A stretch of 64,000 bases of DNA from Candidatus Bilamarchaeum sp. (GTDB taxonomy: Archaea > Micrarchaeota > Micrarchaeia > Anstonellales > Bilamarchaeaceae), in the NCBI GenBank assembly GCA_035455205.1, contig DATIFM010000008.1, positions 110,545 to 174,544 of the forward strand. Direction: 5' to 3'. Below the pieces are notes generated by a model that saw nothing but the letters and a program-made list of their open reading frames with translations, did not search any database and was not told the DNA's origin. Of this stretch, positions 33,364-44,460 are shown piece after piece. How positions within the stretch are numbered: position 1 is the first letter of the stretch; every line of letters starts with the position of its first letter. Position numbers and translations under genes: made by a program.

Positions 33364-34293
33364 ATGCACAAGGACCTGAAAAGGACCATCCGCGACATCA
33401 AGTCCCTCAAGATACAGGGGGCAAGGAACGTCGCGAAGGAAGCCCTGAAGGCGCTAGTCGCGTCAGGAAAAAGCTCGAAAGCCGCCAGTTCCGCCGCATT
33501 CCTGAAGGAGGTTTCCAACACTGCCGAGATGCTCTCCGCGAGCAGGCCCACAGAGCCGATGATGCGCAACATCCTCGACGAGGCGGTGCTTTACCTGAGG
33601 GGAAAGGCGGACACTGCAGGGGGAGCGGCGGGGCTAAAGAGGATACTCGGCGCCCACGGGAAGGAGACGCTCGCCGGGATAGACGAGGGGGCAAAGAGGC
33701 TCGCAGAATACGGGGCCAGGCTCATCCCCGACGGCGCGCTCGTCCTCACTCACTGCCATTCCTCGACCTCGACAAAGGTCATGATAGAGGCAAAGAGGAT
33801 GAGGAAGAAATTCTCGGTGATATGCTTCGAGACGAGGCCGAGGTACCAGGGGCGGACGACTGCGGCCGAGCTTGCCGCGGCAGGGATAGACGTGACGCTC
33901 TCGGTGGACGGGGGCATGAACAGCGCCATGAAGAAGGCGGACATAGTGATAGTCGGCGCGGACTCGGTGACTTCGCGCGGCGACCTCATCAACAAGATTG
34001 GCACGTCCACTCTCGCGCACATCGCGAGGATGAACGACGTGTCGTTCTACAGCGCGGCCGAGCTCTACAAGTACAGCCCGATGACGATTTTCGGCACGCG
34101 CGAAAAGATAGAGGAGCGCGACCACCGCGAGGTCTGGGACAGGCCCGCGAGGGGGGTGAAGATAACGAACCCGGCCTTCGAGGCAACGGCCGCCAAATAC
34201 ATAAACGGGTACATAACCGAGCTCGGCGTGATACCGCCCCAGTCGTTTTTCACGATGGCGAGCCAGAAGCTGGGAATCAAGCTTTACGAATGA
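33364..34293 (+). CDS. e2b2: Ribose-1,5-bisphosphate isomerase (eIF-2B-like family)
   Basis: IKSLKIQGARNVA, SRPTEPMMRN, LTHCHSST, ETRPRYQG, VGADSV...NKIGT, FEAT; directly upstream of AMP phosphorylase. Confidence 0.88.
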   Translation: MHKDLKRTIRDIKSLKIQGARNVAKEALKALVASGKSSKAASSAAFLKEVSNTAEMLSASRPTEPMMRNILDEAVLYLRGKADTAGGAAGLKRILGAHGKETLAGIDEGAKRLAEYGARLIPDGALVLTHCHSSTSTKVMIEAKRMRKKFSVICFETRPRYQGRTTAAELAAAGIDVTLSVDGGMNSAMKKADIVIVGADSVTSRGDLINKIGTSTLAHIARMNDVSFYSAAELYKYSPMTIFGTREKIEERDHREVWDRPARGVKITNPAFEATAAKYINGYITELGVIPPQSFFTMASQKLGIKLYE

Positions 34294-34308
34294 TAACGAG
34301 GCGATCTG

Positions 34309-35877
34309 ATGGTCGAATATGTTGAGAAGGAACAGGGCAAGAAAGTCGATGTCTGGAAAATCAAGAAGTATGTCTGCAAGGTGAAGCCCATTGACATATT
34401 CACGGGGCGCAACATCATCGTCCTCAACAAGGCCGAGGCGCAGGAGCACGACATCTACTCGGGCTTCCGGACCGAGGTCAAAATGGGCAACAAGAGCATC
34501 ATCGCGATTGTCGACGTGAGCCAGGAGATTGTCGAGCCGGGCGAGGTCGGCGTCTTCCGCGACATGGCGAGCAGCTTCAAGATGAAGCGGGGCGAGAGCG
34601 TCGAGATTGTCCATATGGACAGGCCCGAGTCCATCGGCTACATCAAGAAGAAGCTCGACAAGGGCGTGCTCAACCAGAACGAGATAAAGACCATCGTGAA
34701 GGAAATCATGCAGGAGCGCCTGAGCGAGATAGAGACCGCGTCATGGATTACCGCGGCATACATCAACGGCTTCTCCGACGACGAAGTGATATCGCTCGCT
34801 GAGGCGACGGTGGAGTCGGGCGAGCAGCTGAACCTGGGGAAGCACCCCATACTCGACAAGCACTGCATCGGAGGGGTCGCGGGCAACCGGACCACGATGC
34901 TCATCGTGCCGATAATCGCCGCTGCCGGGCTCTATATCCCGAAGACCTCATCGCGCTCGATAACATCCGCCTCGGGCACGGCCGACACGATGGAAGTGCT
35001 CGCCAACGTCACGTTCAGCATGGACGAGATGCGTTCAATCGTCCTCAAGGCAAAGGGCGCGGTCGTCTGGGGCGGCGGGATGCGGCTCGCTCCGGTGGAC
35101 GACAAGCTCATACGGATACGCCACCCGATGAGCCTCGACCCCGAGGGCATGCTCCTTGCGAGCATCCTCGGCAAGAAGAAGAGCGTCGGGGCCGAGTGCG
35201 TCCTCATCGACATCCCGGTCGGGAGGGGAGTCAAGGTCCCTTACGTCGAGCGCGGCAACGAGCTCGCGAAGCATTTCCTGCGTGTCGGCGAGCGGCTCGG
35301 CATGAAGATAGAGGCGATAATCACGGACGGGGCGGAGCCTGTGGGGAACGGCGTCGGGCCGGGCCTCGAGTGCGTGGACGTCCTGCAGGTCCTCTCGGGG
35401 GACAACGGCCCGGACGACCTGAGGCACAAGAGCCTCATCATGGCCGGCAAGCTCCTCGAGCTTTCGGGAAAGGTCGAGAAGGGAAAGGGCTTCGCGGTGG
35501 CCGAAAACCTGATTAAGAGCGGGAAGGCGATGGCCAAGTTCAGGGAGATTATCGCTCTCCAGGGCGGGGACCCGAAGGTGAGGGTCTCGGACATCAAGAT
35601 AGGAAGCTCCACCCACACCGTGACGTCAGAGGTTTCGGGAAGCATATTCCACATCGACAACAAGATAATGTCGAAGATAGCGAGGATTGCCGGGGCCCCG
35701 AGGGACAAGGGTGCGGGCGTGCTCATCCACAGGCTCCGGGGCGACAGGGTGGAGAAGGGAGACAAGCTGTTCACGATATTCTCCGAGAGCGAGGCCAAGC
35801 TCGATTTCGCGCTGAAGGCGCTCAAGGACCTGGAGCCTATCGAGATGAGAAAAATGCTCCTCGGAACGGTGGATTAG
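34309..35877 (+). CDS. AMP phosphorylase (nucleoside monophosphate phosphorylase)
   Basis: N-terminal double-psi barrel extension, DKHCIGGVAGNRTT, PKTSSRSITSASGTADTMEVLA, SILGKKKSVG, GAPRDKGAG. Confidence 0.92.
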   Translation: MVEYVEKEQGKKVDVWKIKKYVCKVKPIDIFTGRNIIVLNKAEAQEHDIYSGFRTEVKMGNKSIIAIVDVSQEIVEPGEVGVFRDMASSFKMKRGESVEIVHMDRPESIGYIKKKLDKGVLNQNEIKTIVKEIMQERLSEIETASWITAAYINGFSDDEVISLAEATVESGEQLNLGKHPILDKHCIGGVAGNRTTMLIVPIIAAAGLYIPKTSSRSITSASGTADTMEVLANVTFSMDEMRSIVLKAKGAVVWGGGMRLAPVDDKLIRIRHPMSLDPEGMLLASILGKKKSVGAECVLIDIPVGRGVKVPYVERGNELAKHFLRVGERLGMKIEAIITDGAEPVGNGVGPGLECVDVLQVLSGDNGPDDLRHKSLIMAGKLLELSGKVEKGKGFAVAENLIKSGKAMAKFREIIALQGGDPKVRVSDIKIGSSTHTVTSEVSGSIFHIDNKIMSKIARIAGAPRDKGAGVLIHRLRGDRVEKGDKLFTIFSESEAKLDFALKALKDLEPIEMRKMLLGTVD

Positions 35878-35918: not shown

Positions 35919-35937
35919 TTCGTAGAAAAAATACGAA
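35919..35937. promoter_or_regulatory. Palindromic operator TTCGTA-N7-TACGAA upstream of the aspartate kinase TATA box
   Basis: Perfect 6-bp inverted repeat with A-rich spacer, 3 nt before TTTAAA (35941); the same core occurs at 39425-39439. Confidence 0.55.
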
Positions 35938-35977
35938 ATATTTAAAAGATGTTCGCACGCGTATCTTTTGTTTTGCT

Positions 35978-37438
35978 ATGTCCAGCCTTATTGTTGCTAA
36001 ATTCGGAGGAACTTCGATGGCCACAGGGAGCAGCTTCGCCCTCGCGGCGCAGAGGGTCGCGCGCAACGACGACATGAGGATTATCGTCGTGTCCGCCCCG
36101 GGAAAGGTGAACGGCACGAACGACCCGGAGGGGCGGATGCAATCCGACGGCGTGAAAGTCACGGACAGGCTCCTTGCGATCGCAAAGAAGGCGAGGGCAA
36201 ACGAGCCCCTGGAGGAGGACATCCGCGCCCTCGAGCGCAGGTATGAAGGCATCGAGGATTCGGCAGGCATAGGCGCTGGGGAGCGGGTGAGCAGCTCAAT
36301 CCGCAATTCAGTCCTCGGGCGCGCAGCCGCCCTCGACCCTGACAGGAGGAACGATGCCGCACTTGCCGCGCTCGGCGAGGAGTTCAACGCGAGGCTGTTC
36401 GCCTCATATCTCAGGCTCAACCATATCAGGGCCAGGTATCTGGACCCGTCGGACGCGGGCTTCACCGTTTCGTGCGAAAACGGCAGGGTTTTCATCGGGG
36501 AGGAGATGTACCAGACGATACGGGGCAAAGTGCAGAGGGCGCTCGATGACGGCGAGCGCATAGTGTTCCCTGGATTCTTCGGATACGACTCCGGCGGCGC
36601 CATGAGGACGTTCCCGAGGGGCGGAAGCGACTACACGGGCTCGGTGCTCGCCGCCGCGCTCGATGCCGGGCTCTACCAGAATTTCACGGATACTGACGGA
36701 ATCCGGGTGGTCGAGCCGTCGATTGCGCAGGACGCCCCGGTAATACGAGCGATGACGCACCGGGAGCTGACCGAGCTCACCCTCGGAGGTGCCTTCGGCG
36801 TGTTCCAGTATGAGGCTGCGGTGCCCCTTGCGATAAACGGCGTGCTGACGCAGGTATTGAACACCTTCGACTTGTCCTCGAAAGGAACGTATATCCTGCC
36901 GCAGGTCGGCTCGAGCGAGAGGGAAGTGACGGGCATCGTCCACAGGGGCGAGTTCGCGGCTTTCGAAATCGTGAAATACGGGATTGCGAACGCCGTGGGG
37001 TTCTTCAGGGACCTCCTCGAGATGTTCAGCCAGATGAAAATATCCATCGAGCACGCGCCTTCATCCACGAACGACATATCGGTCATAGTGAGGAAGAGGA
37101 GCATGGAGGAGGCGGGACTCGGAAGCGGCGAAGTCGCAGAGAGGATACGCAGGGAAATGCGCCCCCACGATTTACGGGTGCATGCAATCAGCGAGGTCGC
37201 GATGGTCGGCGAGGAGCTGAGCAGGACGCGGGGCCTAGGGACGAGGATTCTTTCGGCTGTGAGCGAGGCAGGGGTCAATGTGCCCTACCACTCCCATCAG
37301 GGGATAAGCTTCATACTCTGGCTCAGGAACGGCGACGCGGAAACTGCGGCGAGGGCGATCTACAAAAGCCAGTTTGCGAACGGGCAGACGCTCCGCCTTG
37401 TCGGCGAAGGCGCCCCGGCGGAAGTCACCAGCGCTTGA
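35978..37438 (+). CDS. lysC: Aspartate kinase with C-terminal ACT domains
   Basis: IVAKFGGTSMA, IIVVSAPGK, ALGEEFNARL, FPGFFG, RGGSDYTGSVLA, FTDTDGI, ACT-like C-terminus. Confidence 0.88.
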   Translation: MSSLIVAKFGGTSMATGSSFALAAQRVARNDDMRIIVVSAPGKVNGTNDPEGRMQSDGVKVTDRLLAIAKKARANEPLEEDIRALERRYEGIEDSAGIGAGERVSSSIRNSVLGRAAALDPDRRNDAALAALGEEFNARLFASYLRLNHIRARYLDPSDAGFTVSCENGRVFIGEEMYQTIRGKVQRALDDGERIVFPGFFGYDSGGAMRTFPRGGSDYTGSVLAAALDAGLYQNFTDTDGIRVVEPSIAQDAPVIRAMTHRELTELTLGGAFGVFQYEAAVPLAINGVLTQVLNTFDLSSKGTYILPQVGSSEREVTGIVHRGEFAAFEIVKYGIANAVGFFRDLLEMFSQMKISIEHAPSSTNDISVIVRKRSMEEAGLGSGEVAERIRREMRPHDLRVHAISEVAMVGEELSRTRGLGTRILSAVSEAGVNVPYHSHQGISFILWLRNGDAETAARAIYKSQFANGQTLRLVGEGAPAEVTSA

Positions 37439-37835
37439 AAGAGATGTACGTCCTCGTGTCGGCGACTTCCTTCAGCTTCCTTATCTTGTCGATTTTCGCG
37501 TCTATGTCCTCGACCGAAGGCCCCTCCAGGATGACGCAGCCGTCGTATTCGCCGGAAATCTCGTAGGCGTCGCGGTGGGATTTCAGCTCGGAAACCGCGG
37601 CCATCATCTTCTTGGTTTCGCCCTTGGCCTTGACCATGAGGACCGCGTAATTGCTCATTCCGGAGGAGAGCTCGATAGTGAAGCGCGAAATCAGGCCGCT
37701 ATCGGCCATCCGCTTTATCCGCCAGCGCACGGCGCCCTCGGTCATCCCCAATGAGCGCGCTATCTCCACGTTGCTCGCCCTGGAGTCTGCTTTCAGCTTC
37801 TCGATAATCCTCTCGTCGGTTTCGTCGGTCTTCAT
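37425..37835 (-). CDS. Lrp/AsnC family transcriptional regulator
   Basis: DETDERIIEKLKADSRASNVEIARSLGMTEGAVRWRIKRM; YEISGEYD; C-terminal RAM domain. Confidence 0.9.
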   Translation of the reverse strand: MKTDETDERIIEKLKADSRASNVEIARSLGMTEGAVRWRIKRMADSGLISRFTIELSSGMSNYAVLMVKAKGETKKMMAAVSELKSHRDAYEISGEYDGCVILEGPSVEDIDAKIDKIRKLKEVADTRTYISFKRW

Positions 37836-37845
37836 CCAGTCACCA

Positions 37846-38301
37846 TCAGATTTCCTCTTTGGCTATCTCGAAACATGCCATAGTGAACGTCTTTGCTATC
37901 CCGGGGGTGTTCCGTATCCGGTCAAGTATGAGGGTGCCTATGTCCTCGATGCTCCTCCCGCGGACCTTGATGAGCAAATCCCACTCGCCGGAGATGATGT
38001 AAACCCCGAGCACGCCGGGGATTTTCCCGACCTGCCTCGCAGCCTCGTGCTGGTCGGTGCGTGCGGCCTGCGCATAGGAGGCGAACACGAACGAAAGCGT
38101 CGGAAGGCCGGTCTTGGAGTAATCCTGCTCTATTGTGAACCGCTTTATTACTCCGGCCTTCTTCATCCGCACAATCCGTTCGTGCACGGTTGCTCTGGGG
38201 ATGCCGAGCTGGGTGGATAGCTCGGCTATGGTCTGCCTTGCGTCTTTTCTTAGCGCGTCAATGAGGGAAAAGTCTATTTCATCCAGCTTTACGTCCTTCA
38301 C
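37846..38301 (-). CDS. Lrp/AsnC family transcriptional regulator
   Basis: GTG start; LDEIDFSLIDALRKDARQTIAELSTQLGIPRATVHERIVRM; YIISGEWDLLIKV. Confidence 0.92.
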   Translation of the reverse strand: MKDVKLDEIDFSLIDALRKDARQTIAELSTQLGIPRATVHERIVRMKKAGVIKRFTIEQDYSKTGLPTLSFVFASYAQAARTDQHEAARQVGKIPGVLGVYIISGEWDLLIKVRGRSIEDIGTLILDRIRNTPGIAKTFTMACFEIAKEEI

Positions 38302-38404
38302 ATTGGATAATATCCGGAATATCTATATAAATATGAGCTTTTTTGGGATTTTTTCCGGTATTTTCGGGTTAAAATTAATAAATAAGGAAATCGCGTGTCG
38401 TCCC

Positions 38405-39334
38405 ATGAGTGCACAAGCTACCCTCAGGCCTTTCGCTGGCGAAGCGATGCCGGGCATATCTGGAGAAATTTCACGCTTCAAGCTGCAGAGCGAAAGGGTG
38501 AGGCTCGTAGAGCCGGATTCAAGGGAATGGAGGAGCCTCGCCGTGGGAGAGCGCCTCGAAGGGATACCGTTCGTGGAGAGCATGATACGGGGAGGAAAGG
38601 CGGCCCTCGCGCTGCTTCCGGAACCAACACGGAGCTGCAGGGAAAAGGCGAAAGTCGCGGGAATCGGGATGCAGAACATAGTCAAGACATTGTGCTGCAT
38701 GGAGATGGCGAACCCCGAGGGAAGGCTGTTCCTGGTCACTTCGACTTCGGCCGGGAGGATGAACCTCACGGACATCTGCTGCCAGCACGAGGACCTTCGC
38801 TACGAGGGGCTCGTCCTTGCGGCAAAGACGCTTCCGAGCATGGCCCCGGGGACGTGCACCCCATTTGTTCCCGATACGGACGTGGCGGGAGTGGAGCGCT
38901 TCTTCGTGCAGGCGCCCGAAGGGGGCCTGGGCGACAGGATGGTGGACGTTTCAATAGGAGGCACGGACGAGATTGCGTTCCGCCTCTCGGTTTCGCTAAA
39001 GTACAGGGAGCTCGTCAGCTCCCTTTCCGACGCGTATGGGGAAAAGATGAGGCTTTTCAGCAGGGACGAGGAGCCGGATGCGATGCGCCTTCCGGGCCGG
39101 ATAGAGGAACAGCTAAGGGTCCTCAGGGGCGACCCGAGGCACCCGAAGCGCTACGCGCCGAGGCTCAAGGCGATAAAAAGGCTCGAGAGCCTCGTTGAAA
39201 GCCGCAGCCTCGGAAAGATGGAGAGGGCGCTCGTGATATCGGAGCTGCACATGACAGAGGGGGAGCCCAGAGTCGTCCAGGAGGCGGCCGCGCTCGCTTC
39301 GAGAATGGCAAAAGGGATGGAAACGGATTCGTGA
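38405..39334 (+). CDS. YbaK/ProX (aminoacyl-tRNA deacylase-like) domain protein with C-terminal helical extension
   Basis: IVKTLCC (conserved Lys-Thr-Leu), LFLV, MAPGTCTPF (cf. GxxxPF/G loop), VDVSIGG...SVSLKYRELV. Start placed at 38405. Confidence 0.6.
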   Translation: MSAQATLRPFAGEAMPGISGEISRFKLQSERVRLVEPDSREWRSLAVGERLEGIPFVESMIRGGKAALALLPEPTRSCREKAKVAGIGMQNIVKTLCCMEMANPEGRLFLVTSTSAGRMNLTDICCQHEDLRYEGLVLAAKTLPSMAPGTCTPFVPDTDVAGVERFFVQAPEGGLGDRMVDVSIGGTDEIAFRLSVSLKYRELVSSLSDAYGEKMRLFSRDEEPDAMRLPGRIEEQLRVLRGDPRHPKRYAPRLKAIKRLESLVESRSLGKMERALVISELHMTEGEPRVVQEAAALASRMAKGMETDS

Positions 39335-39422
39335 TGGGGGCAGGGGGAATACTGCCAGGCAGAAGGAGGGATGGGGAGGCGGCCCGGGCTAAAGAAGGGA
39401 GGCCGATGAACCAGTTACTATA

Positions 39423-39439
39423 TTCGTAAAAAAGTTACG
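39423..39439. promoter_or_regulatory. Palindromic operator TTCGTA-N7-TACG immediately upstream of a TATA box
   Basis: TTCGTAAAAAAGTTACG followed by TTTAAA at 39441; matches the 35919 site. Confidence 0.55.
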
Positions 39440-39497
39440 TTTTAAAACATTACACGCCAATAATACTATGACAACAGCTATTGCAAAGGGAACAGGT

Positions 39498-41067
39498 TAT
39501 GTCATACGCAGAATCAGTGCTGAAAGAGGGCGTCCGGAGGAACACCCGGAGCATAGCGGCTTTCGTCGAGAACGCGGCGTTTGCCGATAGGACGTTCAGC
39601 CCGGACTGCCTCAAGGGAAGGGCGTTCCGGGTGAGCGGGCCGATTGACGAGCCGAGGTTAGAAGCCGCAAAAGGCGACGAGAAGGTTTCGGGCCTGATAC
39701 ACATCGGGGGCGAGATGTGCAACTCCTGGACGACCAACTACGAACTGCACACATTCATAGCGGGGGCGATGCTTGCTGCGGCTGCAACTGCGCTGAGGGG
39801 AAGGTTCGGCGAGTACCGCGCTATGGAGGCCGGGCAAAGGAGGAGGCGCATCGAGTCCGACATCCACGCCCTTGACGAAGCGGCCCTTGCCGGGGCGTTC
39901 CGCAGGCCGTCATACGGCATCCTCTCGCAGTTCGTTGACGACGTCGAAGGAGACCGCTACGCAAAGGCGCACCTCTGGGGCATGGAGGAAAGGAGCTCCG
40001 CGCGCTTCGTGCACAACATAAAGAAAGGCGACATGGGAAAGCTGAACGGGCATGCCCCCACCGAGCTTTTCACAGAGGACGACATAGAGATGGCGCGCCT
40101 CGTGCTTTCGAGGGCCGATGACCTTTTCCATGCAAAGGCGGTGCAGATGCATTTCTCCATCCGCGCGTTCCTTTCCAAAATAGGGCTCGGGATGGATGGG
40201 ATTCCGCTGTATTTCAGCTCCACGCCCAACCTGCACATAGGCGCCCTCGAGGAGGGCCACCCGTTCTTTTCGGTCCTGCTTTCGGCTGCCGGGAACAGGA
40301 AGCTCTACGGGAGCCTCGTCCAGGACGACAAGCCATGGATAGTCAAGACGCCCTGCCCGAGCTGCAAAATCGAGTCGAAATACATAATCAAGGCGAGGCT
40401 CGCCGCCGACGGCAAGGCATTCAGGAGCGTGTGCCAGGACAGGGAGAGGGCGATCGTTAACGAGGTCGGCTGGGAAGGCGGGACGCTCCGGGGCTGCGGC
40501 AACGAGTGGCACGAGAGCATGCCCGAAGACGGGAAGGCGATGGCGGCGTTCCTCAAGAGGCGCGCAGTCGGCATGCACTTCCCCATCAACATGTCGCTCA
40601 TGCTCATGAGGAGCGGGATACCGGTCATAGGCTCCATGTTCGAGGACCCGGGCTGGACATACGACGGCGAGAAGCTCGTGAAAGTGCCGGACTACCCGAC
40701 AGGGGACAACCCGGACATGATAATGAGCGTCATGGCGAGCGAGCTTGCCGTAGCCTGCGGCAGGCTGGGCGGGCTTCCGGCAGATGAGATAGCAGGCGCG
40801 CTCCCATTGATGATGTCCCAGCACCCGCAGATAATGGACCCCCTCGTGAAGCAGAGGAAGAACGGGGAGGTGCTCGCTTTCGGGACGACCAACTCGAGCA
40901 TAAGCGCGCTCTACCGCCACGGGATGAGCCCGCTCGAGATATTCGACAGGACGCTCTCCCTGCAGCACTACCCGTTCGGCACCATAAGCGGGTTCAGGGG
41001 CAGGCTCGATATCCCTGCGATGATACGCGAGGCGAACGAGCGCGGTATTTATGTTCCGAGCGGGTAA
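39498..41067 (+). CDS. Class I aminoacyl-tRNA synthetase (LysRS-I-like) catalytic-domain paralog, uncharacterised
   Basis: HIGH-like VSGLIHIGG, then QFVDDVEGDR, FLSKIGL..IPLYFSS, Zn-knuckle-like PWIVKTPCPSC...VC...GCGNEW, HPQIMD; no canonical KMSKS and no anticodon-binding domain. Confidence 0.5.
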
Positions 41068-41074
41068 ATGAGGC

Positions 41075-42205
41075 ATGGATGCTGTCGATTTGCTGAGGCG
41101 GCTGGTGTCGATAAAGTCGGCCGGCCCGAACGAGCGCGAGCTTGGAGCCCACATCGAAGGGCTTCTTCGCGAGGGCGGCTTCCGCACGAAACGGCTCGAA
41201 ATTGCCCCGGGCAGGTTCAACATCCTTGCCGAGAGGGACGGGGCCGGAGCCCCCATCGGGCTCTACGGCCACATGGACAGCGTCGAGCCGGCGCAGGGCT
41301 GGAAGGCCGACCCGTATGTTCTCCGCGAGGAAGGGGACAAATTGACCGGCCTCGGGGCATGGGACATGAAGGCTGGCCTCGCCGCCATCCTGTGCGCGAC
41401 GAGGGAGGCGACCGCAAGGCCGCTCCGCATCGCGTTCGGAGTCGACGAGGAGAACATCTCCGAAGGGGCTCACGCCATCGTGGAAAGCGGGTTCTTCAGG
41501 AGCTGCCAGGTCATCGTCAGCACGGATACGGGAGGGGACGGCGGAGAGCATTTCGGCGAGAGGCAGCTCACGCTCGGCAGGCTGGGCAGGGCAGTTTATT
41601 CCTTTGACGTCCCGGGCAAGGCAGGCCATGCCGCAGGGAACGAGGGCATCAATGCGGTCGAGGAGGGCGCCAAGCTCGTGCGCGAGCTGAAGAAGATACG
41701 GCCGCCAAAGCACAGGCTGCTTCCCCCGCCGCCGGTGTTCGTAAGGTATTTCCACGCCGAAACAAGCTCCCTCTCGATGCCTGAGCGGTGCGTCATCGAG
41801 CTGGACAGGCACCTCGTGCCCCCTGAAACGGCCGAAAGCGTGCTCACCGAGCTCCGGAACGGGATACGCTGGCTCTACGAGACAGGCTTGTTCAGGGAAA
41901 TCGACGGAAAGAGGATAGAGGCGAAGCTCAAGGAAAGGAAGACGCCATATCTTGTCCCGCAGCTCACGGAGCGGAAAAATCCGGACGTGAAAAAGTTCGA
42001 GAGGATAATCTCGGCGAATTTCGGCGAGCCGAAAATCGTATACGGAAATTCGGTGGCCGACGAGAACGTCCTTGCGCTGAGCGGCGTGCCTGTGATAACA
42101 TACGGGCCCAGGGGCGGCCTCATGCACTCGGCCGAAGAGTGGGTGTCGAAAGAGAGCTGCCTCAACATCGTCAAGGGGCTGGGATCGTTCCTTCGCTCAG
42201 AATAG
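41075..42205 (+). CDS. M20/M25/M40 family metallo-amidohydrolase (ArgE/DapE-like)
   Basis: GLYGHMDSVEP, GLGAWDMKAGLA, FGVDEE, GKAGHA, GNSVADEN, YGPRGGLMHSAEEWV. Confidence 0.88.
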   Translation: MDAVDLLRRLVSIKSAGPNERELGAHIEGLLREGGFRTKRLEIAPGRFNILAERDGAGAPIGLYGHMDSVEPAQGWKADPYVLREEGDKLTGLGAWDMKAGLAAILCATREATARPLRIAFGVDEENISEGAHAIVESGFFRSCQVIVSTDTGGDGGEHFGERQLTLGRLGRAVYSFDVPGKAGHAAGNEGINAVEEGAKLVRELKKIRPPKHRLLPPPPVFVRYFHAETSSLSMPERCVIELDRHLVPPETAESVLTELRNGIRWLYETGLFREIDGKRIEAKLKERKTPYLVPQLTERKNPDVKKFERIISANFGEPKIVYGNSVADENVLALSGVPVITYGPRGGLMHSAEEWVSKESCLNIVKGLGSFLRSE

Positions 42206-42247: not shown

Positions 42248-43303
42248 ATGAGACTACTTGCGCTCGCCATGGTCATCGGGTTATTCGTCTTCGGATGCGC
42301 CGGCACAGTGCCGCCTGCCAACAACACGACAGGGATTCCGCCCGGCTACGAGAAACCGGAATTCTGCAAGAGCGCGAGCGACTGCGTCCGCCAGCAGAGC
42401 TGCTGCGACTGCGGCCTCGGAGTTTATGTGAACAAATACCACTACAACAGCACGCCATGCACAGGGCCCGTGTGCAAGTGCGCATTGCAGCCCTCGCACG
42501 CGGACTGCGTGGACAATAAGTGCGTGGCCGTAGCCGACGTATTTCCGCCGCCTCCTGAAAATAACACGACCGGAATTCCTCCGGGGTATGAAGTGAATGA
42601 CTTCTGCAAGGCCGACAAAGACTGCGTGAGGCTTAAAAGGTGCTGCGACTGCGGAGCGGGGGTATACGTGAACATCTACCACCAGAGCGAGGTGGATTGC
42701 TCCGGGCAGCCTGCGTGCATGTGCCCCATCGAGCTTTCGCACGGCGAGTGCCAGGCCAATAAGTGCGTCGCCGTCACGGATTTTGCGCCGCCATCCGAGC
42801 CGAAGATAACCTTTACCGGCTCGCACGGGGAGTGCGGAGGCGCGGTCGCTCCCACGAGGACCGATACGGACGATGGCATGGTCATAAGGGGGGCGATTTC
42901 CGCGCCCACGCCCTGCTACAAGGTCGTCGGGACGGTCGCGAAATCGGACAGCGTCTGGAAAATGATGCTGACGACTGAAGCCGCCCCGAGCAACACGGAT
43001 TATTGCCCGACATGCACAGGGACTATTGCCTGGACTGCGAACATCACCGGGTATACCGGAACGGTGGAGGTCTATTATAACGGCAAGAAGGTTTTCCCGG
43101 ACAAGGCCGGGTTCTGCGGCACGTCGACGCAGGCCTCATGCAGCTCTGATTCGGACTGCATCACTGGCGGGTGCTCCGGGCAGGTCTGCCAGGGGAAAAA
43201 CGAGGAGCCGGTCATAACGACGTGCGAATACCGCACGTGCTACAGCGCGGCTGCCTTCGGCCTGAAGTGCGGATGCATGGCCGGAAAGTGCCAGTGGGGA
43301 TAA
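42248..43303 (+). CDS. Secreted Cys-rich lipoprotein with two tandem 80-aa Cys modules and a C-terminal eight-cysteine-cluster domain
   Basis: Lipobox FVFGC; NNTTGIPPGYE repeat at 42320 and 42560 (240 nt apart); C-terminal CSSDSDCITGGCSGQVC...TTCEY..CY...CGCMAGKCQW. Confidence 0.75.
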   Translation: MRLLALAMVIGLFVFGCAGTVPPANNTTGIPPGYEKPEFCKSASDCVRQQSCCDCGLGVYVNKYHYNSTPCTGPVCKCALQPSHADCVDNKCVAVADVFPPPPENNTTGIPPGYEVNDFCKADKDCVRLKRCCDCGAGVYVNIYHQSEVDCSGQPACMCPIELSHGECQANKCVAVTDFAPPSEPKITFTGSHGECGGAVAPTRTDTDDGMVIRGAISAPTPCYKVVGTVAKSDSVWKMMLTTEAAPSNTDYCPTCTGTIAWTANITGYTGTVEVYYNGKKVFPDKAGFCGTSTQASCSSDSDCITGGCSGQVCQGKNEEPVITTCEYRTCYSAAAFGLKCGCMAGKCQWG

Positions 43304-43466: not shown

Positions 43467-43669
43467 ATGTCATGCTAATTTTCGCTATCGCGAAAATCGC
43501 ATGTTTGCTCGCCTGCGGGCTCGCAACAGACGAATTTTTTTCTCCCAATCCCGAAATTTTGAAAGGTTTGATGGAAAATTTTCCCATAAAATCTCATTCT
43601 GAAAATAATTTCCGCAAAAAATCGACGCAGTAATAAATATTCCAAAATCGCCGCTCTTTGCGTGAGAGC

Positions 43670-44050
43670 ATGATACCGAAACCGAAGGAGACCGGAGAAA
43701 CTGGCGGGAGGGACAGGTTCAAGACTTACGACAAGCTTACAATCGACATAAACGAGGTCCAGTTCTCCACAATCCAGCAGGCCGAGCAGGTCCGGCTCAG
43801 GATGTTCTCCGGCATCAACACCGCAACGCTCATGGCACAGAACATCGGGAGCGCGAGAAGGAGGTCGGACGAAATCGCCTGCATCAACCTCCACCTCGAC
43901 GAGGAGCAGTTCGTATCCATGATGAACCCGGAGCTGAAAATCGTGTTCCGCTCGAACAACGTCCTCGCGCCATACCGCGCGACGGCATTGTTCAAGGAGC
44001 CGCTGTTCAGCGCCGCGGAGCCCCTCGGCGAGCAGGCTTTCAAAAACTAG
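43670..44050 (+). CDS. Hypothetical protein, tandem paralog A
   Basis: Own AT-rich promoter; aligns with the next ORF (Y..LTI.....QF..I...E.V.L; DE..F.....P..K..F; PLF.A..PL.EQ..K). Confidence 0.65.
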   Translation: MIPKPKETGETGGRDRFKTYDKLTIDINEVQFSTIQQAEQVRLRMFSGINTATLMAQNIGSARRRSDEIACINLHLDEEQFVSMMNPELKIVFRSNNVLAPYRATALFKEPLFSAAEPLGEQAFKN

Positions 44051-44082: not shown

Positions 44083-44460
44083 ATGGCTAGATTGATGGCG
44101 CCGCGCATAACCGGAACGAATACGACTACTTACAAGGCGGTCACAATCAGCCTGGACGGGGACCAGTTCGACAGGATACGCCTCACCGAGAAAGTCGTAC
44201 TCAAGGCGTACGGCCCGCAGGGAAGCGGCTCAATGGAATTGGTCCTGAGGAATGCCGGCAGGGGCAAAAGGAACGCGAGGGGAAGCGAGACGCTCGCAAT
44301 TGAGGCGGATGAAGACACGTTCATAGGCCTGATCAGCCCCACGATGAAGGTGAGGTTTTTGGGCGACTCCTCGCGCACCACGTTCGAAACTGAAAGGATA
44401 ACATGCATGCCGCTTTTTGCCGCCAAGGCGCCGCTCCTCGAGCAGAGCCTCAAGGATTGA
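44083..44460 (+). CDS. Hypothetical protein, tandem paralog B
   Basis: 125 aa, recognisable similarity to 43670-44050 over its length. Confidence 0.65.
   Translation: MARLMAPRITGTNTTTYKAVTISLDGDQFDRIRLTEKVVLKAYGPQGSGSMELVLRNAGRGKRNARGSETLAIEADEDTFIGLISPTMKVRFLGDSSRTTFETERITCMPLFAAKAPLLEQSLKD

Follow-up and report, generated by a model that had tools for sequence, protein, structure and literature searches.

An unnamed protein family whose predicted fold resembles that of class I aminoacyl-tRNA synthetases, paired with an M20 metallohydrolase in a Candidatus Bilamarchaeum gene cluster

The DNA analysed here (the window) is a stretch of 64,000 nucleotides from Candidatus Bilamarchaeum sp. (assembly GCA_035455205.1, contig DATIFM010000008.1, positions 110,545 to 174,544; G000:C8:110545-174544 in our locus names, where G denotes a genome, L a locus and P a protein). 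The archaeal assembly is 1.39 Mb in size, 82% complete and approximately 59% G+C, and homologues of the window's proteins carry the label Candidatus Micrarchaeota. An original prediction, made from the sequence of the window, had pointed to an Lrp-controlled amino-acid pathway built around a truncated class I lysyl-tRNA synthetase (LysRS-I)-like enzyme, a YbaK-like deacylase, an M20 amidohydrolase and an aspartate kinase. In this work, we found that the synthetase-like protein, here called X528, founds a rare and unnamed protein family as judged from its sequence, and comparison of related loci indicates that the functional core of the cluster is a two-gene operon, X528 followed by the M20 gene, divergent from the Lrp/AsnC regulator gene Lrp151. 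We tentatively propose that X528 may be an ATP-dependent, tRNA-independent, amide-forming ligase that works with the M20 amidohydrolase under Lrp control, a reading that we consider plausible though somewhat short of probable.

Neither the single X528 sequence nor its profile matched any Pfam, NCBIfam or PDB-sequence entry, with a generic zinc ribbon as the only signal, and scanning 29 family members against Pfam and NCBIfam returned generic zinc-ribbon matches only and no aminoacyl-tRNA synthetase (aaRS) match. A word-indexed search of 5.8 billion proteins retrieved four close homologues with 67-73% identity, and an exhaustive scan with HMMER, over 1.84 billion representatives, brought the family to 31 proteins in about 30 clusters, mostly of 500-546 aa, none of which has a functional name. 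Within the genus, 5 of the 37 genomes have a member of the family. None of the 24 genomes taken from other families in the order has one, whereas 5 of the 301 genomes that sample the phylum do, as do a few bacterial metagenome-assembled genomes. In the tree, the window's clade and P0027 together form a long-branch sister group to the remaining members. The literature yielded no description of the family or of the gene combination, in agreement with the original prediction, which had known of no such system.

The motifs conserved throughout the family are GxExxN(S/T), D(D/T)D(I/V)xxxR(Y/F)xK, D195, K213, SK and NE within the zinc ribbon, GD(H/N), and (D/N)(T/S)S. At the position of the class I HIGH signature, HIGG is present in the window's clade only and the rest of the family has (I/M/L/G)(G/P)(G/V/A/I)E, while the KMSKS position reads TTNSS or (D/N)(T/S)S, without a conserved Lys. 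A likeness to PP-loop enzymes (GGExxNS compared with the PP-loop motif SGGxDS) was not relied on, and no PP-loop ATPase is among the top structural matches described below.

The fold of X528 was predicted with AlphaFold2 (AF2). With five close homologues the predicted local distance difference test (pLDDT) score was 37, and adding 24 distant members gave a confident model, with a pLDDT of 93.7 and a predicted template-modelling (pTM) score of 0.93 from the 29 family sequences. In a Foldseek search against the PDB, the first match was BshC (4wbd; E 9.2e-3, prob 0.96, 411 columns, TM 0.30), the putative cysteine-adding enzyme of bacillithiol biosynthesis (PF10079), and the second was LysRS-I (1irx_B; E 0.069, prob 0.63, 326 columns, TM 0.24). 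Approximately half of the top 50 matches are class I aaRS-like proteins, including TyrRS, TrpRS, MetRS, MshC (rank 36) and a cyclodipeptide synthase. Each match is weak, but the matches are consistent in kind because all of these are class I aaRS-type HUP Rossmann domains. Four cysteine residues invariant in the family (C286, C289, C312, and C333) form a zinc ribbon located between predicted core strands three and four (237-242 and 378-381), the position of connective peptide 1 (CP1). The C-terminal 120 residues are predicted to be a mixture of short helices and strands, and no anticodon-binding domain was recognised in this predicted secondary structure, which was read by eye without comparison to solved domains. 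The model weakly suggests for X528 a Rossmann domain of the class I aaRS (HUP) type that is split by a zinc ribbon, with an overall shape nearest to BshC, a resemblance at the level of the fold only. For the 528-aa open reading frame (ORF), the Rossmann fold implied by the original prediction is thereby supported by a confident model and by a Foldseek list dominated by class I aaRS-like proteins. Its class I aaRS-like label holds for this architecture and not for family membership, with no match to a hidden Markov model (HMM) and neither HIGH nor KMSKS.

X528 was also compared directly with LysRS-I and BshC. A genuine LysRS-I gene is present at G000:C8:178749-179807 (PF01921, 268 bits, 504 aa), about 4 kb past the end of the window and about 27 kb downstream of X528, and PF01921, which finds this gene, misses X528. 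The term truncated is incorrect because X528, with 522 aa, is as long as the LysRS-I of the same genome. X528 resembles LysRS-I in this length, in the predicted insertion of a four-Cys ribbon into a Rossmann fold, in the HIGG of the window's clade and in the local ribbon pattern, which is PWI...CPxCG...C...GCG in the X528 family and WSPiMPiCekCG...C...GCG in LysRS-I. When aligned to the LysRS-I of Micrarchaeota by hhalign, the zinc ribbon alone was aligned, with a probability of 8.8%, and the predicted succession of helices and strands in X528 is compatible with a Rossmann fold split at CP1. Differences are that the LysRS family HMM misses X528, the His of HIGG is not conserved, KMSKS is missing and the predicted C-terminal part appears unlike an all-helical anticodon-binding domain. 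A truncated LysRS was rejected on the negative LysRS and BshC HMM results, the clade-specific His and the missing KMSKS. Isoelectric points do not tell X528 apart from genuine LysRS. PF10079 has no match in the genome at E <= 1, although control genomes respond to it.

The partner of X528, the M20 protein, matches PF01546 (1.3e-20) and M20_dimer (2.1e-10), both above cut-off, and its metal-binding and catalytic residues, read by motif, are intact (H66, D68, D97, E125, E126, and H351); they are assigned from the HxD, D, EE and H motifs of DapE. Its best models are those of the ArgE/DapE family, DapE, ArgE, and LysK, all below cut-off (TIGR01910, 150 bits against a cut-off of 217.6). Because no equivalog cut-off was reached, the protein is placed at the level of the subfamily without a specific substrate.

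X528 and M20 are separated by 7 nt or overlap in six of six loci (the window, L001, L004 (=G007), L005 (=G004), L006, and G033), and Lrp151 is the divergent upstream neighbour of the pair in all six. In G033, the unit is kept through an inversion and a separation of 20 kb from lysC. The other genes vary. The position of the YbaK-like gene is occupied by a YbaK-like gene in the window and L001, by asparagine synthase B (AsnB, 842 bits) in L006 and by an M54 peptidase in L005, and it is empty in L004 and G033. The kinase gene lysC and the second regulator gene, Lrp136, are both present in the window, L001, and L006 and both absent from L005 and L004; in G033, lysC is 20 kb away and Lrp136 is not nearby. 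The gene set named in the original prediction is thus co-conserved only in part, with the X528-M20 pair and Lrp151 constant and the YbaK-like gene, lysC, and Lrp136 differing between loci.

Two sister genomes, G026 and L014, have no X528, yet they keep the Lrp genes, M20, and the YbaK-like gene, and in each a different protein overlaps the start of M20. The protein in this slot of G026 is 335 aa long and GNAT-like (AblB-like, 1.3e-9). It heads a minus-strand run (L052, G026:C30, 3650-7386) in which the GNAT-like gene is followed by M20, a short YbaK-like gene (209 aa) and an archaeal asparagine synthetase A of the truncated AsnRS-like type (NF005054, 313 bits, above cut-off). It is unusual for a YbaK-like gene to be the immediate neighbour of an aaRS paralogue that is independent of tRNA. 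The slot protein of L014 (P0043, L014 4352-5332) has 326 aa and is marginally similar to carboxylate-amine ligases of the YbdK/GCS2 type, with E-values of 0.008 and 0.052. Together with 11 homologues (alignment A7), P0043 makes up an unnamed, Micrarchaeota-only family of about 326 aa with invariant ExE, HxH, and ExRxxD motifs that recall YbdK/GCS2. The possibility that the 335-aa and 326-aa proteins are shortened versions of X528 was rejected, as they are unrelated to X528 and to each other. Our main argument for amide formation by X528 is that three unrelated proteins share the slot coupled to M20, of which the GNAT is of an amide-forming class and the L014 protein possibly is as well.

Based on these observations, the reaction that we propose for X528 is the activation of an amino acid, or of some other carboxylate, and its coupling to an amine, with an amide as the product. 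Amide formation is the chemistry of MshC and has also been proposed for BshC. M20 would act on an N-acyl bond of that same metabolite, forming or cleaving it, in order to unmask the acceptor amine or to recycle the product. Through the Lrp proteins, as sensors of amino acids, expression would be tied to the aspartate/asparagine pool, and activated aspartate may come from the kinase. The use of ATP, the formation of an amide, the nature of the substrates, and any role of the kinase and the YbaK-like protein are all points that we infer. A more specific version, which we consider quite unlikely, is that X528 belongs to an aaRS-derived family in which HIGH and KMSKS have been replaced by another nucleotide- or acyl-phosphate-binding site. 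Such an enzyme would convert aspartate, possibly as beta-aspartyl phosphate made by the kinase, to an undescribed aspartyl or aminoacyl amide that is trimmed or recycled by M20, and the corresponding product of the bacterial sister enzymes would be N-methylated by a fused HemK-like enzyme. The amide made by this aspartate-using X528 could be a compatible solute, an analogue of the low-molecular-weight thiols or a cofactor precursor.

Several observations weigh against the ligase proposal. In place of the class I ATP motifs, the family has GxExxN(S/T) at the HIGH site and (D/N)(T/S)S at the KMSKS site, so that ATP use by X528 is a prediction only. No sequence method ties X528 to any aaRS, BshC, or ATP-binding family, and the structural similarity is weak (TM 0.24-0.30, E 0.009-0.07). 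Pairing with M20 is confined to one narrow clade, the six loci all belonging to a single genus or its close surroundings, and the identities of both slot-replacing proteins are weak, especially that of the YbdK-like one. Elsewhere in the family, partners have a flavour of translation (a HemK-like methyltransferase, a RimI-like GNAT, and aIF5B). To our knowledge, BshC has no demonstrated activity in vitro, and the analogy therefore rests on a poorly understood enzyme.

The regulatory context links the pair to the kinase gene. Lrp136 and Lrp151 both match PF13404 and PF01037 above cut-off, and the best model for Lrp136 is LysM (NF040947), with 112 bits against a cut-off of 180. Lrp136 lies beside lysC in the window, L001, L006, and G026 and is present without lysC in L014, and an orthologue of Lrp151 with 65-82% identity was found in eight of eight compared loci. 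The original prediction had described one palindrome shared by the lysC and X528 promoters. Throughout the 1.39-Mb assembly, TTCGTA-N7-TACG occurs at exactly two sites, 35919 and 39423, each abutting a TATA-like box, and the former is the only perfect copy (TTCGTA-N7-TACGAA) in the genome. Since approximately 1.5 such sites are expected genome-wide by composition, the count alone is not significant; the significance comes from the placement at both promoters and from the conservation at both in two relatives. CGTA-N7-TACG is found at the lysC and X528 promoters also in L001, where the box is upstream of the lysC operon, and in G033, where the box is upstream of lysC and the two genes are 20 kb apart. 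The sequence CGTAAAAAAGTTACG is identical upstream of the X528 orthologue in L001 and G033. L006 keeps one half-site, and L004 and L005, which are without lysC and Lrp136, bear other palindromes. From their sequence and position, the CGTA-N7-TACG boxes are probably Lrp-type operators, and their conservation across genomes supports co-regulation of lysC with the X528-M20 pair. The palindrome GGATAATATCC, unique in the genome, is in the same place in L001, L006, L004, L005, and L014, and is probably the autoregulatory operator of Lrp151; L005 has a second copy approximately 100 nt upstream of its X528.

The lysC product matches PF00696 (7.8e-28) and ACT_9 above cut-off, and its top NCBIfam models are all aspartate kinase, the best being NF006540 (328 bits against a cut-off of 434). 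The original prediction had noted that asd, dapA, and dapB are missing from the window. This was extended to the whole assembly, in which the domains Semialdhyde_dhC (asd), DHDPS (dapA), and DapB_C (dapB) have no match, although control genomes respond, and tblastn of a congeneric Asd against the genome returned nothing. Moreover, asd is missing from two relatives that have the kinase, G033 with 92% and G026 with 93% completeness, and in G009 it is right beside the kinase. Because none of the three genes was found, we consider the window's kinase an orphan and the ordinary diaminopimelate (DAP) route excluded, with the 82% completeness of the genome as a small loophole. A weak PF01118 match was considered as a cryptic Asd and rejected, as the protein is saccharopine-dehydrogenase-like and encoded beside a class III aminotransferase. 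The two genes lie in this order at G000:C10:18360-20170 (L056 1492-3310), the first with PF03435 and PF16653. Some members of these two families use aspartate semialdehyde in other organisms. The aspartate context of the cluster includes AsnB in L006 and asparagine synthetase A in G026.

The YbaK/ProX-like assignment of the 309-aa protein is weak but real as judged from sequence profiles. The protein itself matches PF04073 with an E-value of 0.13, and P0041, a homologue with 45% identity, reaches 6.8e-10, above cut-off. A profile of six homologues (A6) matches the ProX-type structure 1wdv (E 0.0024) and 2cx5 (E 0.13). The aminoacyl-tRNA-editing fold would occupy approximately residues 60-190, with a helical C-terminal extension of about 110 aa. 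VKTL in the window's protein aligns with VKTL of APE2540, and its Lys, at the position of the conserved catalytic lysine in the xKTL motif of the YbaK/ProX family, is replaced by Arg in two of the six homologues. The YbaK-like identity given in the original prediction is weakly supported.

Outside the window's clade, the family has other partners, of which the GNATs (in G249 and with P0027) and a HemK-like methyltransferase act on amino or amide nitrogen and so speak for the ligase proposal. In G249, a GNAT gene overlaps the family member upstream, and the neighbours of P0027 encode an Acetyltransf_6 protein and a sugar or inositol dehydrogenase-like protein. Among bacterial members, a HemK/PrmC-like NPPY methyltransferase is adjacent or overlapping in L028 (3552-5973) and fused in P0022 (L027 8001-10526). 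The two HemK-like versions are 56% identical, indicating that the fusion reflects a genuine functional link. Both L027 and L028 have a divergent upstream gene for a TrmB-family regulator. The Micrarchaeota genome G090 is a single contig of 0.77 Mb, and its family member shares 4 nt with the end of aIF5B (L035, G090:C1, 8852-12198). This member faces a 347-aa protein with two AsnC-type helix-turn-helix domains. P0026 (JGI 3300072015) is encoded 16 nt after a 1418-aa TCAD9-domain protein, with an 891-aa MTS-methyltransferase protein upstream and a sigma-54 activator downstream, a neighbourhood whose gene content may represent a conflict-system context.

Some of these partners raise the alternative that X528 is an aaRS-derived enzyme that puts an amino acid on a tRNA nucleotide or a translation protein, as GluQRS/YadB and EpmA do, with the YbaK-like protein as a tRNA-binding deacylase and the methyl- or acetyltransferases finishing the modification. 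The HemK/PrmC-type methyltransferase, both adjacent (L028) and fused (P0022), the overlap with aIF5B, and the GNAT of G249, whose best model is RimI, fit such a role, as do the YbaK/ProX-like gene beside X528 in the window and L001 and the resemblance of the zinc ribbon to that of LysRS-I. However, the best matches of the GNAT and HemK proteins are generic, and that to RimI is below cut-off. X528 has no HIGH or KMSKS, its predicted C-terminal part appears to contain no anticodon-binding domain by eye, and the YbaK-like gene is dispensable in four of the six X528 loci. The members of the window's clade are partnered with a metabolic deacylase of the ArgE/DapE type, control is by Lrp with an operator in common with lysC, and the slot is filled by GNAT-like or YbdK-like proteins in sister genomes. 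We consider a role in translation unlikely.

Rather more doubtful is a non-ligase role, in which X528 would serve in binding or regulation, centred on its zinc ribbon, or would be part of a conflict or defence system, with a Rossmann scaffold that has lost its nucleotide chemistry and a link to M20 that is incidental to catalysis. The loss of the canonical ATP motifs, the patchy distribution, the clustering of invariant residues at the ribbon (C286, C289, K294, C312, E322, and C333) and the position of P0026 directly after the TCAD9 protein, with the MTS-domain protein also present, speak for such a role. It accounts less well for the strong conservation of the charged GxExxN(S/T), DxDxxxxRYxK, and GD(H/N) motifs at those ends of the strands that bind the nucleotide in HUP enzymes, for a gene layout suited to translational coupling to an enzyme, and for Lrp control in common with a biosynthetic kinase. 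Ordinary amino-acid metabolism, in which lysC and a DapE/ArgE/LysK-type hydrolase would serve a standard route to lysine or arginine whose genes lie elsewhere, with the other genes as unrelated neighbours held in place by synteny between close relatives, is highly improbable, for although the best M20 models, the nearest model of Lrp136 (LysM), the narrow origin of all X528-M20 loci (one genus or nearby, also with the R15P isomerase and AMP phosphorylase genes of Table 1 upstream) and the incompleteness of the genome leave it some room, asd, dapA, and dapB were not found, the only Semialdhyde_dh-like match is saccharopine-dehydrogenase-like, all M20 scores fall below equivalog cut-offs, the X528-M20 unit is intact in G033 despite the inversion and its 20-kb distance from lysC, and the operator is kept at both promoters. 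For explanations beyond the ligase proposal and these three alternatives, we reserve a small share of probability.

The features of the cluster are collected in Table 1, and the gene list, order, and spacing of the original prediction, including the 7-nt gap between X528 and M20, were all found as it described them. The M20 start is 7 nt past the stop codon of X528. For X528 itself, the ATG listed in Table 1 is the choice of the gene caller and is preceded by a conserved AAGG 9-11 nt upstream.

Table 1. Features of the cluster and its flanks, numbered from the first nucleotide of the window.
Feature	Coordinates	Strand	Support or position
Ribose-1,5-bisphosphate (R15P) isomerase	33364-34293		TIGR00511, 242 bits
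AMP phosphorylase	34309-35877		TIGR03327, 619 bits, above cut-off
Palindrome TTCGTA-GAAAAAA-TACGAA	35919..35937		Perfect; immediately upstream of the TATA-like box of lysC (ATATTTAAAAG)
Aspartate kinase, lysC-like, 486 aa, C-terminal ACT domain	35978-37438	+	Pfam, NCBIfam
Lrp/AsnC regulator Lrp136, 136 aa	37425-37835	-	HTH_AsnC and AsnC_trans_reg
Lrp/AsnC regulator Lrp151, 151 aa	37846-38301	-	AsnC-type domains
Palindrome GGATAATATCC	38305..38315		4 nt upstream of the Lrp151 start codon
YbaK/ProX-like protein, 309 aa	38405-39334	+	Weak profile support
Second palindrome copy TTCGTA-AAAAAGT-TACG	39423..39439		Directly upstream of the X528 TATA-like box (TTTTAAAA)
X528, unnamed family, 522 aa (528 aa from TTG at 39481)	39499-41067	+	Class I aaRS/BshC-like at the level of the predicted fold
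M20 metallohydrolase, ArgE/DapE deacylase subfamily, 376 aa	41075-42205	+	PF01546, M20_dimer
Secreted Cys-rich protein	42248-43303		heavy_Cys domain (TIGR04289, 67 bits)
First tandem ORF	43658-44050		
Second tandem ORF	44083-44460		

The R15P isomerase and AMP phosphorylase genes (33364-35877) are upstream of the cluster in every related locus. The archaeal AMP/RuBisCO salvage route consists of three enzymes, and these proteins are two of them. Downstream of M20, the secreted Cys-rich protein combines an N-terminal module that is duplicated internally with a heavy_Cys domain of eight cysteines at the C-terminus; a homologue is directly or closely downstream of M20 in the window, L001, L006, and G033 and further downstream in L014. 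The tandem ORFs that follow (125-130 aa) are apparent paralogues, assigned to no family, with the common ending ...PLFAAKAPL.EQ..K., and L001 has two 124-aa ORFs in their place.

The X528 family is a well-defined target for enzyme discovery because it is invisible to the sequence libraries used and yet confidently folded. The small genomes of DPANN archaea are thought to hold little biosynthesis, and dependence on a host is assumed. An asd-less aspartate kinase that is wired by an operator to a ligase-like and deacylase pair suggests a dedicated small-molecule route in such an organism. Since we know of no in vitro reconstitution of the BshC reaction, the structural link may in turn help to understand BshC. 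Class I aaRS-like domains have been recruited repeatedly to non-ribosomal chemistry, as in MshC, BshC, the cyclodipeptide synthases, and GluQRS, and the X528 family would be a further, unusually derived recruitment of this scaffold.

Compared with known systems, the cluster recalls the ArgA-E, DapD-E, and LysX/Z/Y/J/K-LysW routes and LysM in combining an amino-acid kinase, an ArgE/DapE/LysK-type M20 enzyme, a possible amine-acylating enzyme, and a LysM-like Lrp protein. In contrast to those routes, no reductase (Asd, ArgC, or LysY) was found here and the cluster has no aminotransferase, and the kinase is a two-domain aspartate kinase rather than one of the LysZ/ArgB type. BshC is the best structural match of X528, has a similar length (about 540 aa), and likewise is predicted to share a class I aaRS-like Rossmann core without being a tRNA synthetase. 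The logic of the pathway proposed here would also be comparable, in that a deacylase frees an amine to which a ligase adds an amino acid. On the other hand, PF10079 is negative in the genome and the TM score is only 0.30. Among the annotated neighbours of X528, there are no GT4 or LmbE genes of the BshA/BshB type, for which the genome as a whole was not searched. No archaeon has been found to have the bacillithiol pathway (PMC12719100). The methyltransferase NmbA, which acts in the formation of N-methyl-bacillithiol (PMC12719100), parallels the methyltransferase partners of the X528 family. The spectrum of aaRS-like ligases, including those of non-ribosomal peptide synthesis, was laid out by Aravind et al. 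2010 (PMC2922099), and none of the families described there has the domain make-up or the gene neighbours of X528. X528 as proposed here would resemble MshC and the other ligases of that survey (PMC2922099) in the recruitment of a class I aaRS catalytic domain to small-molecule amide formation without tRNA. Such ligases are often encoded beside acetyltransferases (PMC2922099), and in the mycothiol pathway MshD follows MshC. Whereas MshC is a close paralogue of CysRS in which the signature motifs are intact, X528 has diverged much further, to the point that sequence comparison does not detect the relationship suggested by its predicted fold.

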